The notes beneath the pieces were generated by a model, which saw only the letters and a program-made list of their open reading frames with translations, was not told where the DNA came from and did not search any database. 13,634 bases of DNA. Origin: a virus. Lineage: Duplodnaviria; Heunggongvirae; Uroviricota; Caudoviricetes. Positions 926-7,828 of the stretch are shown one piece after another. How positions within the stretch are numbered: the stretch's first letter is position 1; each line of letters starts with the position of its first letter. Both the position numbers and the translations under genes were made by a program. Location: the IMG/VR virus record IMGVR_UViG_2740892028_000001, positions 1 through 13,634 of that record. The stretch is one strand, 5' to 3'.

Positions 926-1804
926 TCAGTAGTTATGTACTGAAGGAGGTAATTCTTTATTCTTAAGTCTCATCCATGCGGAAAGATTCGCTGGTCCGTC
1001 TGGCTCATTGATATCAACATCTCGTGTGTGATTTATTAAAACGTCTCTCGCCATTCCGATAACATACGAGAATTCATGACCGTAGTCGTAGCATCTGCCG
1101 GAATAGTTCGATTGAATTTGTTTTAATGCCGGATACAGTTCGCGGAATAATGCCTGTGAACGGTTAGCATAATCCCATAGCCATACAAGGCTGTTTGCTT
1201 CTTTTGCAGAAAGCTCGTTTGCTTTCTTCTCTTGTTTGCCGATAAACTCGCCTTCAAGCACTACCCTGTGGATGTACTCTACGGCCAGCGGGATTTGTTC
1301 AATTGAAAGTTCATCAATGCTGTCAATACCAAAACGCTGATGAACCATATTGTATGCATCGTCATAGCGAAGTCCTTTCTTTCCTACCAGCATGTTTACT
1401 GCATCGCGTAGCGGCGTTCTTTCCTCAACAGTGGTTTTCTTGCCTTTCACGTACTCGCCATGTTTGCGAATTGAAGGTAGAACTTCTGCTGTTACCCACT
1501 TGCGGAATTTGTGCGGGACCGAACCTTTATTGACAGCATCGCGGCAGCGCAGAACCAATGTATACATACCTGATTCGCTAACAATGCTTAGATTCTGCTC
1601 ACCGCCAAGGGTGTAACTTAAAGTTACTCCCTTTTCATCGTCATCAAGTGCAGTAAGCGCCTTGCGTGAGTTAGTCAGGGTTAAAGCATCACAAACATCT
1701 TTTGCTACAAACCACGGCTCACCGCATTTGTTGATGACGCGGATTTCACTGTCGCCGAATTTGAAGATGGTGAAATCGTTTTGTGCCTTTGCTATACTTT
1801 TCAT
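926..1804 (-). CDS. ant: Antirepressor Ant with an N-terminal Bro-N/KilA-N-like domain
   Basis: ORF track 926..1870. The 1870 start is a TTG lying 2 nt after the arc stop; the first ATG is at 1804-1802 with AGGAAA about 9 nt upstream. Motif [30 protein letters not shown] is typical of Bro-N antirepressors. Position immediately downstream of arc, as in P22 immI. Start choice is uncertain (1804 vs 1870). Confidence 0.85.
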
Positions 1805-1805
1805 G

Positions 1806-1876
1806 TCAATATTTCCTAATCCGATTTGTTGATACCGAAGCCCTGACTGTTCCCGCAGTTGGGGCTTCAACTTTAC
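1806..1876 (+). ncRNA. sar: Candidate sar-like antisense RNA covering the ant ribosome-binding site and arc-ant spacer
   Basis: Plus-strand -10-like hexamer TATACT at 1793-1798 inside the ant 5' end. A 13-bp stem with two G-U pairs (1837-1849 pairing with 1856-1868, 6-nt loop) followed by AACTTTAC. Predicted transcript is about 70 nt and antisense to the ant RBS, as described for P22 sar. No convincing -35 element. Confidence 0.35.
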
Positions 1877-2124: not shown

Positions 2125-2376
2125 ATGGCTAGAGATGATCCGCACTTTAACTTCCGTATGCCTATGGAAGTAAGGGAGAAATTAAAATTCAGGGCGGAGG
2201 CGAATGGGAGATCAATGAACTCCGAGTTGTTACAAATCGTCCAAGATGCTCTATCAAAACCATCGCCTGTGACTGGATATCGCGACGATGCAGAACGACT
2301 CGCTGATGAGCAGTCAGAGCTTGTTAAGAAGATGGTGTTTGATACGCTGAAGGATTTGTACAAAAAAACCACCTGA
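2125..2376 (+). CDS. mnt: Mnt repressor, 83 aa
   Basis: Translation MARDDPHFNFRMPMEVREKLKFRAEANGRSMNSELLQIVQDAL... matches P22 Mnt from memory. Divergent from arc with both operators in the 90-bp spacer. Confidence 0.95.
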   Translation: MARDDPHFNFRMPMEVREKLKFRAEANGRSMNSELLQIVQDALSKPSPVTGYRDDAERLADEQSELVKKMVFDTLKDLYKKTT

Positions 2377-2475
2377 CGGTGAGTTTATTTTTGCATTTAC
2401 CTGGGCCATATTGACTACTTATAAAATGAGATCAATATTTAATCGCCCAATAACGGGTGTATGTTGAGGTATATC

Positions 2476-2655
2476 ATGGCGAAAAAACCAGGTGAAAACA
2501 CAGGAAAAAACGGCGGAATATACCAAGAAGTTGGCCCACGCGGCGGTAAGAAAGACAATTTTGCCACCGTCAAGGACAACGAAAGGCTTCCACCAACAAC
2601 AAAGCCAGGTCATGGCTGGGTATTGGATAAGCGAACTCCAGACAGCAAAAAGTAA
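2476..2655 (+). CDS. Small Lys/Gly/Pro-rich protein of unknown function, 59 aa; accessory (moron) gene
   Basis: ATG 2476 with GAGG 6 nt upstream; the ORF-track start at 2461 lacks a good RBS. Sequence MAKKPGENTGKNGGIYQEVGPRGGKKDNFATVKDNERLPPTTKPGHGWVLDKRTPDSKK has no hydrophobic segment. Followed directly by a terminator hairpin. A loose resemblance to YjzC-like small proteins is from memory only. Confidence 0.6.
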   Translation: MAKKPGENTGKNGGIYQEVGPRGGKKDNFATVKDNERLPPTTKPGHGWVLDKRTPDSKK

Positions 2656-2660
2656 TAATC

Positions 2661-2684
2661 AAGCCGGGTCACTCCGGCTTTTTG
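2661..2684 (+). terminator. Rho-independent terminator after the small accessory gene; hairpin also contains the stop codon of the convergent HExxH gene
   Basis: Stem AAGCCGG, loop GTCACT, stem CCGGCTT, then TTTT. On the minus strand the same hairpin is followed by GATTATTA, so it may act weakly in both directions. Confidence 0.7.
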
Positions 2685-3034
2685 ATATGTCGCTCGCAGA
2701 ACTCAACAAGCCTGCTCATTAAGTAGCAGTAAGTCTCGTTGGCTCTTCCTGGTTCAACATCAACACCTACCCTTGAGCAGATATCGAATGCCATGTGAGC
2801 GCACTCATGGGCAATAGTAGATAGTTTGCCATTGAACACGCCTATCACATGCAAAACACCATTCTCGCTACTCATTGTATGAGACGCTCCGTTGGCGTCC
2901 GAGTCATGCACGTCAACGCCAAGTTTTTGATGCAGGCGTTGCCATTCTGGAAAGTCTCTACAAAACACAATTGTACCGCTCTCAAAGAGCGGTACTAGCA
3001 TCTTTGGTACGTTTCCAATGTTAACTTTTTTCAT
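2669..3034 (-). CDS. Hypothetical 121-aa protein with an HExxH motif (putative zinc-metallopeptidase-like); accessory gene
   Basis: ATG 3034-3032 with AGGA 4 nt upstream. Motif IAHECAHMAF with a downstream Glu (VEPGRANE). Family not recognised by me. Located where P22 carries sieA. Confidence 0.6.
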   Translation of the reverse strand: MKKVNIGNVPKMLVPLFESGTIVFCRDFPEWQRLHQKLGVDVHDSDANGASHTMSSENGVLHVIGVFNGKLSTIAHECAHMAFDICSRVGVDVEPGRANETYCYLMSRLVEFCERHIKKPE

Positions 3035-3064
3035 GGTATCCTGCGCAAAACTAAGGAGGTTGGT

Positions 3065-3394
3065 GTGTTAGAAATAGTCGTACTCGCTCTTGGGATATCC
3101 TGTTGCGTACTATATGCAGGGTTAGCTGCCCTCAAGAAACAGGTTAAGGAATTAGATCGCTCACATGAAATTGATACAAAAATTGCGCGATTAACAGAAG
3201 AGAATAAACACTTAAAAAATTCCATAAGGGCACTAACTGATGACAACTACAAACTGTCCCATGCATTGGCTAAGTGGGAAATAGTAAGTTATGAAAGAAT
3301 GACCGACATGATTTTTTCGTCTTATATGGCTACAAAATCTCCTGAAACATCAGGAAAAGCAATAATTGCAGCCATTGAAAAGAGAATTAAATAG
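3065..3394 (+). CDS. Hypothetical 109-aa membrane-anchored coiled-coil protein; accessory gene
   Basis: GTG start at 3065 with AGGAGG (3054-3059) 5 nt upstream. N-terminal hydrophobic helix LEIVVLALGISCCVLYAGLAAL, then a heptad-like charged region (KKQVKELDRSHEIDTKIARLTEENKHLKNSIRALTDDNYKL). Visibly AT-rich. Convergent with the gp16 gene. Confidence 0.6.
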   Translation: MLEIVVLALGISCCVLYAGLAALKKQVKELDRSHEIDTKIARLTEENKHLKNSIRALTDDNYKLSHALAKWEIVSYERMTDMIFSSYMATKSPETSGKAIIAAIEKRIK

Positions 3395-3413
3395 CCTTCC
3401 TTGGCGTTCATTT

Positions 3414-5255
3414 CTACTGCCTGGTAGCTTCGTTAGTTAGGAGCGGGCGAACGGCGTTAGCAGCCTGATTTAACGCTCGCTCATATGCCGGAGTTCCAGG
3501 CTTGACGTTTGCAAGGCGGAGAAGCATGTTTCTTGCTGCTTTAGACTCATACAAACGCATCATTGCACCAAAGCCAGCCTCAAGCCCCATTGATACGCCA
3601 AGGGTCGCAGTTGCGCCAATCGTCCTTATCCTGTTGGCTTGCGATTGCCCCGTCTGAGTTACTACATTTGCGGTGTCTGACCTTGCTGTTTGCTGTAGAA
3701 CTTCATGAAGAGCATCAAGCTCTTTCATGTGCTTTCCAGAAAAAATAGTGTTGTAAATTTCACCGCCTGACTGAGATTTCAGCTTATTAACTTCAGTGAT
3801 GAACTTGGCTGGAGAGTCCCCGGCCTTTTCCGCTATTTTGCTGACGTAAGCTGCACGCATAGCATCTTTCCCCTTATCATCCAGTGCGCTCCAGATTCGT
3901 TTCACGTCAGATGGTTTTCTGCTTAATACAACGGTATTTATAAGTTCAGGACTGGCTTCACTGCTTGCCTTGTTGAGCTTGTTGGCAATGTTTTTATTAA
4001 GCACCTTATTATAAACGTTTGCATAATCGGAATTTGCTTTAAGGTATTTTGCTGCGTCTGATGCACCGAGGTTTTTAGCAACTGCGTTACGAAGGTCTTT
4101 TGACATTGCATTCTCTACCATATTGGTAGCTGCTTTTGCCTGGTTGGGGAAGACCATAGCATCTCCCTGAACATTAGATCTAAATGCTGTTCTGTGCTGA
4201 CGCAAGAGATCAAACGTAACATCCAAATCAGTTGCAGGGTTTGCTAATTCTTCACGTAGGTTACGCAAGGATGTAAGCAGGCTTTGATTGGCAGACGTCC
4301 CAAGCCGTTCCTGTCTTGCGATCGCTGTATTCAGAGCATTCATGGTATTTGTGGTATCAACTGCGGCATTACCCATTTTATTGGTGACGTCATTGATAAC
4401 AGCGCCAGCGGCATCCTTCCGCCCCCTTAACGTGGTGGTAAGAGATTTCACCACATCATCAGGGTTGTACTCACCAAAACGGTCAAAATAATTACTTACC
4501 AGCTTACTACGCGTTGCATATTGCTCCGCTCGCTTTGAGCCTGTCCCGAGCAAAGCCCCCTCGGCATCCTGAGTTAGGCCGCGAGTGAAAGCATTTTTCG
4601 GCGGGATAACATCAGATGTCATTGGTGTCACGCCCATCGATTCTGATGTGGCAATTTTCTTCGCCACTTCTGGCGCAATATCACCTTTTATAGCCGTTAT
4701 TCCACGCCCTATTCCCTTTGCTGCTGCGGAAAGAACCCCCTGAGCGGCAAGGTTAACTCCGGCATTTTTTGCTGCATTTTGTGCGAAATCGCCTTTCTGA
4801 TTTGCGGCCTCTGCCAGTGATCCAATAGCCATGCTTCCTGCCGTTCCAACTCCTGGAACTAAATACCCACCAATTGTTTCACCGGCTTGCGCGTAGGGGT
4901 CTGTCGGTCTGTCTACTGGACGATAAACATCATCCAAAACCTTGGGTCCACCAAGCCCCTGACTGATTGCATTAATCAGACTTGCGCCGCCCTGCAATAC
5001 GTCAAATGGTATGTTTACCAGACCACGACCAGCCTGTTCTGCAATTTGCCCTGCACTTTGACCACCAGTGAGCCAATCGCCAGCTTGTTGCATCAATGAT
5101 GGTTCTTCACGTGCTGGTTCATTGCTATCCTGGCTGACAGTTTGTTGCTGAACAGACTGTCCAGCAAAATACTCATCAATGGCAGATCCAATATCTTCCG
5201 TGCTCGTACCATCAGGGAAGGTAAATGTCTTACCGTTTGCAGTTACTTTCATCAT
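3414..5255 (-). CDS. Ejection (E) protein, P22 gp16-like, 613 aa
   Basis: N-terminus [33 protein letters not shown] matches P22 gp16 from memory. Its ATG overlaps the gp20 stop (ATGA). Last gene of the gp7-gp20-gp16 triad. Confidence 0.9.
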
Positions 5256-6677: not shown

Positions 6678-7370
6678 TTAAAACAACGAGCCAAGCAGAC
6701 CAAGACCGCCGCCGATCGCAGCCCCCCACGGAGTTGATGAACCAATTAATTTCGCAAGTCCGGCCCCAGCAATAGCACCAGACGCACCTCCGCCAATAGC
6801 AGATTGCATTGCTGATGGTCTGTTGGCATTTGCCGCTGCAAGAGCCGCACTTTGCTGCGAAATCTGACTCATGTTGTTGGCATATGTCTGCCCTGCGTTT
6901 GCCTGACCTTGCAGAGCACCAAGCCCAACGTTTGCCAGATTCTGGTAGTTGTTCATCTGACCAGACAGCCACTGCTGACCAAGCGTTGGTGCGATTGTTG
7001 CTAACTGATTACCGGTTGCAGTGGAACCCAATCCACCTGTTGCTTCCGCTGCAGCCAGACTCTGATAGCGAGCCTGACCAGCAAGATCTTTGTACTGCTG
7101 AGAGTTGTAATACTGGTTAAGTGCCTGACCTTGCCCTTCCAGAGACGATAAGTTCTCGAGGCTGCCGACATACTTATCAGCCAGAGGAGTAAACGGCTTC
7201 AGGTTGTTCATGATGGTGTTGAACTGCTGATTTTGCAGGTCTGCGGCATACTTCTGAGCTTCTGCGGCATACTTTGCGCTTTTATCAGAACTGCCACCTT
7301 TCCCGCCTTTTTCAGGGCAATAAGGTTCCTCGCCGCGCAGTTTTCTGCCCAGCTTAAATGCATATAACAT
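6678..7370 (-). CDS. Ejection (E) protein, P22 gp7-like, 230 aa
   Basis: MLYAFKLGRKLRGEEPYCPEKGGKGG... with a Gly/Ala-rich hydrophobic C-terminus (GGGASGAIAGAGLAKLIGSSTPWGAAIGGGLGLLGSLF). Near-identical to P22 gp7 as recalled. Confidence 0.9.
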   Translation of the reverse strand: MLYAFKLGRKLRGEEPYCPEKGGKGGSSDKSAKYAAEAQKYAADLQNQQFNTIMNNLKPFTPLADKYVGSLENLSSLEGQGQALNQYYNSQQYKDLAGQARYQSLAAAEATGGLGSTATGNQLATIAPTLGQQWLSGQMNNYQNLANVGLGALQGQANAGQTYANNMSQISQQSAALAAANANRPSAMQSAIGGGASGAIAGAGLAKLIGSSTPWGAAIGGGLGLLGSLF

Positions 7371-7372
7371 GG

Positions 7373-7828
7373 CTATCTCCCGTGATTCAGGAAGTCGATT
7401 AGTTCTTCGCGTGTAGCACTGTAAAATGTCACGTCATCCACGCCTTTGAAGTATTTCTTGATGGTTCCGACACGCTTAAGGCCAATCATTGCGCAGTAAA
7501 TCTGCCCGTGGCGGAATTTGCGTGCGGCGAACGATGTGACGCACTGAACGGTGGTGTTAGTCAGAATGTATCGCCAGAACGCCAGCCCGATTTCCTTGCT
7601 GAAGCCGCGAATCTCTGGCAGGTACATGGCGTGGCAATCGAATGTCAGCGGCTGAATCTCCTGATAGTAAACAATGCCGCCAAACTGCCCGTGCACGTTA
7701 ACCTCAAAGTAACGGCAATCAGGTTTGTAGTCGTATCCATCACCGTTGTTGCTCCCGGCGATAATGTCAGGGTGATTTCCTACTGCTTCGATCAGGTCGA
7801 TGTTTCGCGTTGGTTTGAATGTAATCAT
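7373..7828 (-). CDS. P22 gp14-like protein, 151 aa (assigned by position between the tail needle and gp7 genes)
   Basis: ATG overlaps the gp26-like stop (ATGA). Conserved synteny 26-14-7. Function assigned by position, not by recognised motif. Confidence 0.7.
   Translation of the reverse strand: MITFKPTRNIDLIEAVGNHPDIIAGSNNGDGYDYKPDCRYFEVNVHGQFGGIVYYQEIQPLTFDCHAMYLPEIRGFSKEIGLAFWRYILTNTTVQCVTSFAARKFRHGQIYCAMIGLKRVGTIKKYFKGVDDVTFYSATREELIDFLNHGR

Follow-up and report, generated by a model that had tools for sequence, protein, structure and literature searches.

The window analyzed here, the whole 13,634-nucleotide stretch of IMG/VR record IMGVR_UViG_2740892028_000001, covers the late region of a P22-like (Lederbergvirus) prophage in reverse orientation, including the region from gene 16 to gene 9. 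Between the repressor gene mnt and gene 16, which encodes the ejection protein gp16, lie three small open reading frames (ORFs): orf59a, hkcC, and an ORF of 109 amino acids (aa) that occupies the slot held in phage P22 by the superinfection-exclusion gene sieA (Table 1). The content of this slot is swapped precisely from start codon to stop codon, a feature that is new relative to earlier descriptions of the region. The interval corresponds to the left arm of the P22-like "ant moron" and consists of three independent units rather than one module; we regard this anatomy, and with it the cassette relationship of the slot gene, as very nearly certain. The best explanation as a whole, to which we give just short of an even chance, combines the three separate units with a 109-aa slot protein that protects the lysogen at the inner membrane.

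The borders of the cassette were located by aligning the window with P22, SE1, HK620, and the Escherichia coli prophage PKF8. The five loci are identical from the 5′ end of hkcC through the PsieA region and the Shine-Dalgarno sequence up to AAGGAGGTTGGT-GTG, and they diverge right after the GTG. For P22, SE1, and PKF8, the alignment to the window resumes at the stop codon, 19 nucleotides (nt) before the gene 16 stop; for HK620 it does not resume, owing to another type of gene 16 3′ end. On the left side, positions 2300-3068 of the window are 97.9% identical to P22, and this match ends at the P22 sieA start codon. The putative PsieA promoter annotated in P22 (BK000583) corresponds to positions 3004-3034, and it is by this homology to P22 that the promoter of the 109-aa gene is assigned. 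The Shine-Dalgarno sequence AAGGAGG (3053-3059) stands 5 nt from the GTG, which must be the start of the 109-aa ORF, given that the first internal methionine is residue 79. Window position 3065 corresponds to position 3266 of the P22 locus (L001), where sieA likewise starts with GTG. Although Leavitt et al. called the P22 sieA start uncertain (Leavitt et al., 2024; PMC10883804), the presence of the common GTG in all 11 slot families described below, mostly without a nearby alternative start, argues for the 164-aa form of P22 SieA. The 109-aa ORF itself is unannotated in SE1 (L003, approximately 3137-3466) and ST160 (L002), probably because of its GTG start.

The composition of the 109-aa ORF also sets it apart. 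Its guanine-plus-cytosine (GC) content of 37.0% (31.8% at third codon positions, GC3) is below that of every 330-base pair (bp) segment of the late region (minimum 40.6%, mean 48.4%) and marks the gene as foreign cargo; a deviating composition, a separate promoter (here assigned by homology), and a slot whose content varies among related genomes are the marks of a moron, an insert in a phage operon with expression of its own. The values for orf59a (47.2%) and hkcC (45.9%) fall within the late-region range, so that a preliminary description of this DNA, in which the entire interval had appeared AT-rich, holds for the 109-aa ORF and fails for the other two. The same description had placed three different small genes where P22 carries sieA and had proposed them as a novel module. 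The ORFs themselves are real: they occupy the plus, minus, and plus strands, bounded by the stop codons of mnt (2376) and gene 16 (3414), and each has conserved homologs and a full-length match to a PHROG family of its own (phrog_3202 for orf59a, phrog_1365 for the 121-aa hkcC, and phrog_8100 for the 109-aa ORF), as expected of genuine genes and not of chance ORFs. Given the 97.9% identity to P22 and the presence of orf59a and hkcC in that phage, however, the premise is wrong for two of the three genes, and only 3065-3394 replaces sieA. Far from being novel cargo, orf59a and hkcC are P22/HK620 genes at 98-99% identity, and both were already listed as P22 genes of unknown function by Villafane et al. 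(Villafane et al., 2008; PMC2629481). The accessory, fast-changing nature of the position in P22-like prophages was correctly recognized and had been described by these authors as the "ant moron," a variable region with 10 types in 16 genomes (PMC2629481). Their account gives gene-content types and includes neither the start-codon-precise exchange in the sieA slot nor the 109-aa family.

To survey the slot across prophages, we scanned IMG/VR with the 32-nt junction and translated ORFs from the common GTG. Including five annotated reference loci and the window, this yielded 121 complete ORFs (116 from IMG/VR), which form 11 sequence families when the window type and HkcB are counted apart. The window type is present in 30 complete and two truncated loci, a 129-aa protein with a signal-like N-terminus in 29, the HkcB types in 19, SieA type A in 12, and the 62-, 106-, 75-, 149-, 99-, 140-, and 68-aa families in 2 to 7 loci each. 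An N-terminal hydrophobic transmembrane (TM) or signal-like segment was found in 10 of the 11 families (binomial p = 5e-5 against an assumed background of 30%), and SieA is the only family with a characterized function. None of the 30 complete window-type loci carries the ORF with a different promoter and start codon of its own. The allele in the slot correlates with the type of 3′ end found in the neighboring gene 16. P22-like gp16 C-termini accompany the window type, SieA, and the alleles of 129, 62, and 149 aa (with one 149-aa locus next to an HK620-type end), HkcB occurs only beside HK620-type C-termini, and the window type only beside the P22-like C-terminal types T1 and T5. The conserved promoter region, ribosome-binding site, and GTG are thus fused in different prophages to unrelated small ORFs ending 0-25 nt from the gene 16 stop, and the slot content is probably exchanged by recombination in the conserved flanks, which fits the correlation with gene 16 3′ ends. 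We rejected the identification of the 129-aa allele as st313-td/bstA of phage BTP1 (L134, LT714109), given that bstA adjoins the cI repressor gene and that BTP1 has no ant moron.

The family of the 109-aa protein is very narrow, comprising 14 clusters among 5.8 billion proteins; when 1.84 billion representatives were searched with a profile, five true relatives and no link to another family emerged. The exact protein is common in the assembly collection, where it is listed in 4429 blocks, and rare among complete genomes of E. coli, 2 of 5426 of which encode it. A single hydrophobic segment spans residues 4-22, and the AlphaFold2 (AF2) model shows a continuous helix (residues 2-90) followed by a short one (residues 96-108), with a predicted local distance difference test (pLDDT) score of 84.6; both features agree with the earlier view of a membrane-anchored coiled-coil protein. 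Lysine and arginine residues number zero before the TM segment and four after it, which by the positive-inside rule favors an N-out/C-in orientation. Conservation is concentrated in the C-terminal residues 67-109 (AKWEIxSYExMTDMIFSSYMATKSPETSG..IIAAIE.R), which are 77-98% identical across the family, compared with 14-83% in the TM segment and 35-98% in the middle helix. Homologs at 50-65% protein identity retain both the length and the motif. Between the window and SE1 alleles, the ratio of non-synonymous to synonymous substitution rates (dN/dS) is approximately 1.0 in codons 1-66 (18 non-synonymous and 5 synonymous changes) and approximately 0.08 in codons 67-109 (1 and 3, respectively). The conserved C-terminus and this codon-level selection suggest that the gene is functional. 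Matches of the protein to DivIC, ZapB, bZIP, LmuB, and spanins were discarded as sub-threshold coiled-coil noise. Mimicry of an ejection protein was likewise rejected, since the best BLASTP match to the virion and immI proteins of the window (gp16 residues 508-546, E = 0.023 in a tiny search space) is not significant.

A membrane-anchored protein encoded exactly in the sieA slot is a legitimate candidate for exclusion or defense, as had been proposed. The support is positional and comparative. The 109-aa gene shares with P22 sieA the genomic slot, the upstream region (82 of 85 nt), the ribosome-binding site, and the GTG start; it lies, as sieA does, between genes 16 and 9 and downstream of PsieA; both genes are convergent with gene 16 and both are moron-like prophage genes. 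The two proteins also begin alike, with a short acidic N-terminal tail, a TM helix, and then a basic cluster. In P22, a single copy of sieA with 85 bp of upstream DNA confers full, 10^7-fold exclusion (PMC10883804). SieA prevents P22-like phages from injecting their DNA, and mutations that overcome it lie in gp16 and gp20. The C-terminal region of P22-type gp16 is the known target region of SieA, and gp16 in the window has a C-terminal region of this type (type T1). It is from the SieA regulatory signals, the enrichment of the slot for small envelope proteins, and the occurrence of the BTP1 transcript STnc6030 at the same junction that our preferred reading is drawn. According to it, the 109-aa gene would be expressed constitutively in the lysogen from the PsieA-homologous region, as sieA is, and its product would insert into the inner membrane with the N-terminus outside and with the long helix and the conserved C-terminal hairpin in the cytoplasm. 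The mechanism that we consider most likely is that the protein, from its place in the inner membrane, guards the lysogen from incoming phages, and it would do so by interfering with DNA delivery by P22-like phages via the gp16/gp20 conduit or a host partner. We hold this exclusion function tentatively, as a serious possibility that falls somewhat below even.

Several observations weigh against an exclusion function. Many moron genes serve host physiology and not phage defense, and a slot shared with SieA amounts to guilt by association. The conserved domain, predicted to lie in the cytoplasm, does not seem obviously suited to blocking a conduit that spans the periplasm. Searches of PADLOC, Pfam, and NCBIfam returned nothing above threshold for the 109-aa protein, and the contrast in substitutions between its N- and C-terminal parts is based on small numbers (27 changes between the window and SE1 alleles; Fisher p = 0.065). 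No similarity to P22 SieA is detectable by BLASTP (E = 0.31), and the protein matches phrog_8100 instead of SieA's phrog_7745. At 109 aa it is shorter than the 164-aa SieA, and it has one TM segment versus three or four: Leavitt et al. predicted three TM domains in P22 SieA (PMC10883804), and we found four Kyte-Doolittle segments, two of them overlapping. The cytoplasmic SieA motif FxRYPxEAxxFNK (defined in PMC10883804) is absent from the 109-aa sequence on direct reading. Moreover, the statement that cargo at this position commonly acts in superinfection exclusion or host defense was too strong, given that the only determinants shown experimentally here are SieA types A and B (PMC10883804) and STnc6030 (PMC7067206).

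A second point of comparison is HkcB of HK620 (phrog_5962; a homolog of epsilon34 gene 14-15), which shares with the 109-aa protein the slot, the start codon, the length (109 or 107 aa), and the overall plan of an N-terminal TM segment followed by a long helical or coiled-coil region. The conserved C-terminal domains of the two proteins, by contrast, are unrelated. Default BLASTP gave no match between them; without composition correction, the TM/coiled-coil part matched the 107-aa HkcB subtype (L014) at E = 2e-5 and HK620 HkcB at E = 0.004. Alignment of the two families with hhalign gave a probability of 30% over 36 coiled-coil columns only, and the 109-aa protein matched phrog_5962 at E = 0.011.

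The 109-aa protein could instead be another lysogenic-conversion or defense factor that does not block DNA entry by P22-like phages, for example a membrane-tethered abortive-infection sensor or effector, a defense against unrelated phages, or a modulator of the host envelope or division. We consider this possible, if on the unlikely side. A conserved domain predicted to be cytoplasmic would suit such a role, and so would an N-terminal TM segment joined to a coiled coil with weak similarity to DivIC, ZapB, and LmuB, although these matches all lie below family thresholds and are typical of coiled-coil noise. The slot alleles are too diverse for one function to be assumed, and a Panacea-domain antitoxin-like gene in sister prophages suggests that the region hosts toxin-antitoxin- or abortive infection (Abi)-like cargo. 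What speaks for interference with DNA delivery is that the sole characterized occupant of the slot is a DNA-entry blocker, that the slot adjoins gene 16, whose C-terminal part is the SieA target, and that the window type is confined to neighbors with the P22-like gp16 C-terminal types T1 and T5.

It is improbable that the RNA, not the protein, is the active product. A transcript from the PsieA-like promoter would then cross the 109-aa ORF and extend into the gene 16 3′ end, antisense to the late transcripts of incoming related phages. STnc6030 of BTP1 sets a precedent at the same junction (PMC7067206), and such read-through is made likely by the lack of any plus-strand terminator-like site between the 109-aa stop (3394) and position 3707. 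The ORF, however, has a strong Shine-Dalgarno sequence at a 5-nt distance from its GTG and is intact in all 30 complete window-type loci. Its C-terminal codons appear to be under purifying selection, and length and motif are retained by homologs at 50-65% identity. Furthermore, P22 SieA functions with only 22 bp of downstream DNA (PMC10883804).

The three genes vary independently across loci, contrary to the idea of a single module. An intact hkcC is found in 63 of the 125 junction-bearing loci, and in 44 others just 12 codons of the gene are left. The window-type 109-aa gene is accompanied by both hkcC and orf59a in 12 loci and by neither in the rest. Assemblies that encode an identical 109-aa protein differ in what separates mnt from the slot, namely orf59a and hkcC, a 139-aa gene, the 139-aa gene with a Panacea-domain gene, or two other small genes. 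A single module, in which, for example, the HExxH protein HkcC might act on the membrane protein as a processing or regulatory factor assisted by orf59a, is therefore very unlikely. The adjacency of the three genes would fit it, as would the divergent arrangement of hkcC and the slot gene, with 30 bp between their starts and the PsieA region inside the hkcC 5′ end. Yet hkcC and orf59a are 98-100% identical beside SieA, HkcB, 129-aa, 75-aa, 149-aa, and other alleles, more than half of the window-type loci have lost both, with the 139-aa gene or other cargo in their place, and hkcC lies on the late strand, whereas the slot gene is expected to be expressed in the lysogen. The 139-aa protein (phrog_6823) takes the orf59a/hkcC position in sister prophages with an identical 109-aa gene (L129 and L125), and one sister locus adds a SocA/Panacea-domain antitoxin-like protein (PF13274, 1.8e-24); this cargo lies at 7183-7626 and 6759-7178 in L129 and at 7463-7882 in L125. 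Its presence suggests toxin-antitoxin-like cargo in the same hotspot.

Least credible of all is a late or lysis function of the 109-aa ORF (spanin- or holin-like) or its decay into a functionless remnant, which weak PHROG matches to Rz-like spanins (E = 0.015 and 0.064) and an overall dN/dS of 0.64 between the window and SE1 alleles could suggest, but which is at odds with its position on the strand opposite the late operon, outside the lysis cassette and with no Rz1 partner, with an N-terminal charge pattern opposite to that of an i-spanin (N-out predicted), and with a C-terminal third that is nearly invariant in a protein found unchanged in 4429 assembly blocks.

A bolder version of the exclusion reading, which we think rather unlikely, extends to the slot as a whole. 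The sieA slot would be a single-gene plug-in site in which one promoter, ribosome-binding site, and GTG drive at least 11 unrelated small envelope proteins, each a distinct exclusion or defense determinant matched to ejection-protein types, and the 109-aa protein would be a non-SieA injection blocker acting from the cytoplasmic face of the inner membrane via its 43-residue C-terminal hairpin. A corollary concerns BTP1, whose transcript STnc6030, a reported exclusion determinant at the same junction of genes 16 and 9, was proposed to be an antisense RNA (PMC7067206). At the sieA position of BTP1, antisense between gene 16 and the tailspike gene, we noted a 23-codon hydrophobic mini-ORF (MERDLLNFVFLIFGLVVGKLLFA; 5012-5083, minus strand) with a GGAGGG Shine-Dalgarno sequence, an ATG start, and a perfect TATAAT upstream. 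Its frame, length, and hydrophobicity are kept in the E. coli phage HF4s (L135) at 83% nucleotide identity. The mini-ORF lies inside STnc6030, which is reported to exclude BTP1, and the single-nucleotide polymorphisms that escape STnc6030 cause missense substitutions close to the C-terminus of gp16, a region in which mutations escaping SieA are found as well. Given a conserved mini-ORF and missense escapes in gp16, a small-protein mechanism may have been overlooked, and STnc6030 may act at least partly via this conserved membrane mini-ORF.

The remaining two genes of the interval are shared with P22 and HK620, and HK620 annotates the same layout of HkcD, tORF59A, hkcC, and hkcB. The product of orf59a is identical to that of P22 orf59a at 58 of 59 residues and is rich in lysine, glycine, and proline, as initially described (10, 9, and 6 residues, respectively). 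It scores 19.4 bits against PF14168 (YjzC; E = 1.3e-3, 47 of 55 profile positions), which is under the 25-bit gathering cut-off. Its phmmer matches that carry PF14168 (E = 1e-6 to 5e-4) are proteins of other phyla, and proteins 76-80% identical to it are named YjzC family in UniRef. It also shares the length and the glycine-, lysine-, and proline-rich pattern of YjzC, although the protein itself is below the Pfam cut-off. Judged by these sequence features, orf59a is a YjzC-family small protein. The terminator noted after this ORF, a hairpin with a T-run, was confirmed; it equals t(mnt) in P22 (BK000583) and tORF59A in HK620 (AF335538) and overlaps the 3′ end of hkcC. Since orf59a follows mnt and precedes this terminator, its co-transcription with mnt is most likely, and rightward transcription of mnt-orf59a in the lysogen would end at the terminator.

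HkcC is 99% identical to its HK620 counterpart, and the gene is present in P22, HK620, and SE1; in P22 it is intact (L001 2870-3247) and unannotated in record BK000583. The HExxH motif reported in the preliminary description is present (H76-E77-C-A-H80), and H76, E77, and H80 are invariant in 19 homologs with identities down to 43%, in which N99-E100-T101 and several cysteines are near-invariant. E100 is located 20 residues past the second histidine. In thermolysin-type gluzincins, the third ligand is a glutamate approximately 20 residues downstream (H146 to E166 in thermolysin), and HkcC shows the same combination of HExxH and downstream glutamate. Its AF2 model (pLDDT 89.3, predicted template modeling score 0.83) contains a small sheet, the HExxH helix, and a second long helix. 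A Foldseek search of BFVD with this model matched many small uncharacterized phage proteins (E down to 1e-9, template modeling scores of 0.6-0.8), a few of which are named SprT-like, metalloprotease, or IrrE. A profile search of PDB sequences gave no match at E up to 10, and Foldseek against PDB gave nothing significant. With a median dN/dS of 0.031 among 35 alleles, hkcC is under strong purifying selection. HkcC resembles small SprT-like or zincin-like phage proteins in having HExxH on a helix after a small beta-sheet and a conserved glutamate 20 residues on, and the model suggests that it is a putative metallopeptidase of a minimal zincin-like (SprT-like) type.

Late-operon read-through is known to cross this region toward gene 9 (PMC2629481). 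Given that hkcC lies on the late-gene strand and that a simple scan of the minus strand at 3035-3413 found no promoter for it, the gene is most likely transcribed by read-through of the late operon, proceeding from gene 16 in the direction of the tailspike gene. On the minus strand, 57 nt past the gene 16 stop, a terminator-like hairpin with a T-run (3338-3357) lies within the codons that specify the conserved SPETSGK motif of the 109-aa protein and could attenuate this read-through before it reaches hkcC and the tailspike gene. The 5′ end of hkcC contains a perfect 10-bp inverted repeat (GTACCGCTCT..AGAGCGGTAC, 2973-2995) within the codons of the conserved VPLFESGT motif, where the 85-bp PsieA region has its upstream edge. 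Compared with P22, two bases at the edge of the repeat are substituted, and one of these changes lengthens the stem; the repeat may be an operator, an attenuator, or a product of chance.

The flanks are those of a P22-like late region. On the left, mnt borders the interval and begins the mnt-orf59a transcription unit. The antirepressor gene ant combines a Bro-N N-terminal domain with P22_AR_C, and some sister loci have P22_AR_N in place of Bro-N, indicating that ant itself is a domain mosaic. On the right, PF26808 (Phage_P22_gp16) matches the gene homologous to gene 16 in related loci. The virion genes of the window are approximately 97% identical to those of the E. coli phage HK620, whereas the interval itself is nearest to the Salmonella phages P22, SE1, and ST160. 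All phage and prophage homology ends at position 13573; the last 61 bases (13574-13634) match thousands of insertion sequence (IS) copies in E. coli genomes and form the terminus of an IS3-family element (IS1203/IS629-like) that has disrupted the portal gene. The prophage is likely to be defective.

Table 1. Features of the window, listed from left to right.
Feature	Position	Strand	Description
Tailspike gene (gene 9), 5′ part	~825 down to 1	minus	
ant	926-1870		
sar antisense RNA	1806-1872		Rfam RF00262
arc	between ant/sar and mnt		
mnt repressor gene	2125-2376	plus	Pfam Arc 4e-30, Repressor_Mnt 7e-19; agrees with P22 mnt annotation
orf59a (HkcD of HK620)	2476-2655	plus	59 aa; phrog_3202 at 7e-31
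Bidirectional intrinsic terminator	2661-2680	both	8-bp GC-rich stem and T-run on plus strand; same stem on minus strand
hkcC	2669-3034	minus (late-gene strand)	121 aa; HECAH at residues 76-80; phrog_1365
sieA-upstream homologous region	2980-3064	plus	82 of 85 bases identical to P22
sieA-slot gene	3065-3394	plus	109 aa; GTG start is that of P22 sieA and HK620 hkcB; phrog_8100 at 1.4e-69
Gene 16 (ejection protein gp16)	3414-5255	minus	613-aa ORF aligning with P22 gp16; right border of interval
Genes 20, 7, 14, 26, 10, 4, 5, 8 and 3′ part of portal gene	right of interval	minus	

Most of what had looked like an island is thus ordinary P22/HK620 sequence, known though uncharacterized since 2000-2003. 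What is new is a single cassette, located at a hotspot already known for superinfection exclusion and morons, and the start-to-stop precision of the exchange. Should several slot alleles turn out to exclude phages, the slot would offer a compact, naturally assembled library of small membrane proteins targeting the DNA-delivery conduit of podoviruses. Such a library would help to map how gp7, gp20, and gp16 cross the envelope, and it would explain why sieA is present in only a third of P22-like phages.

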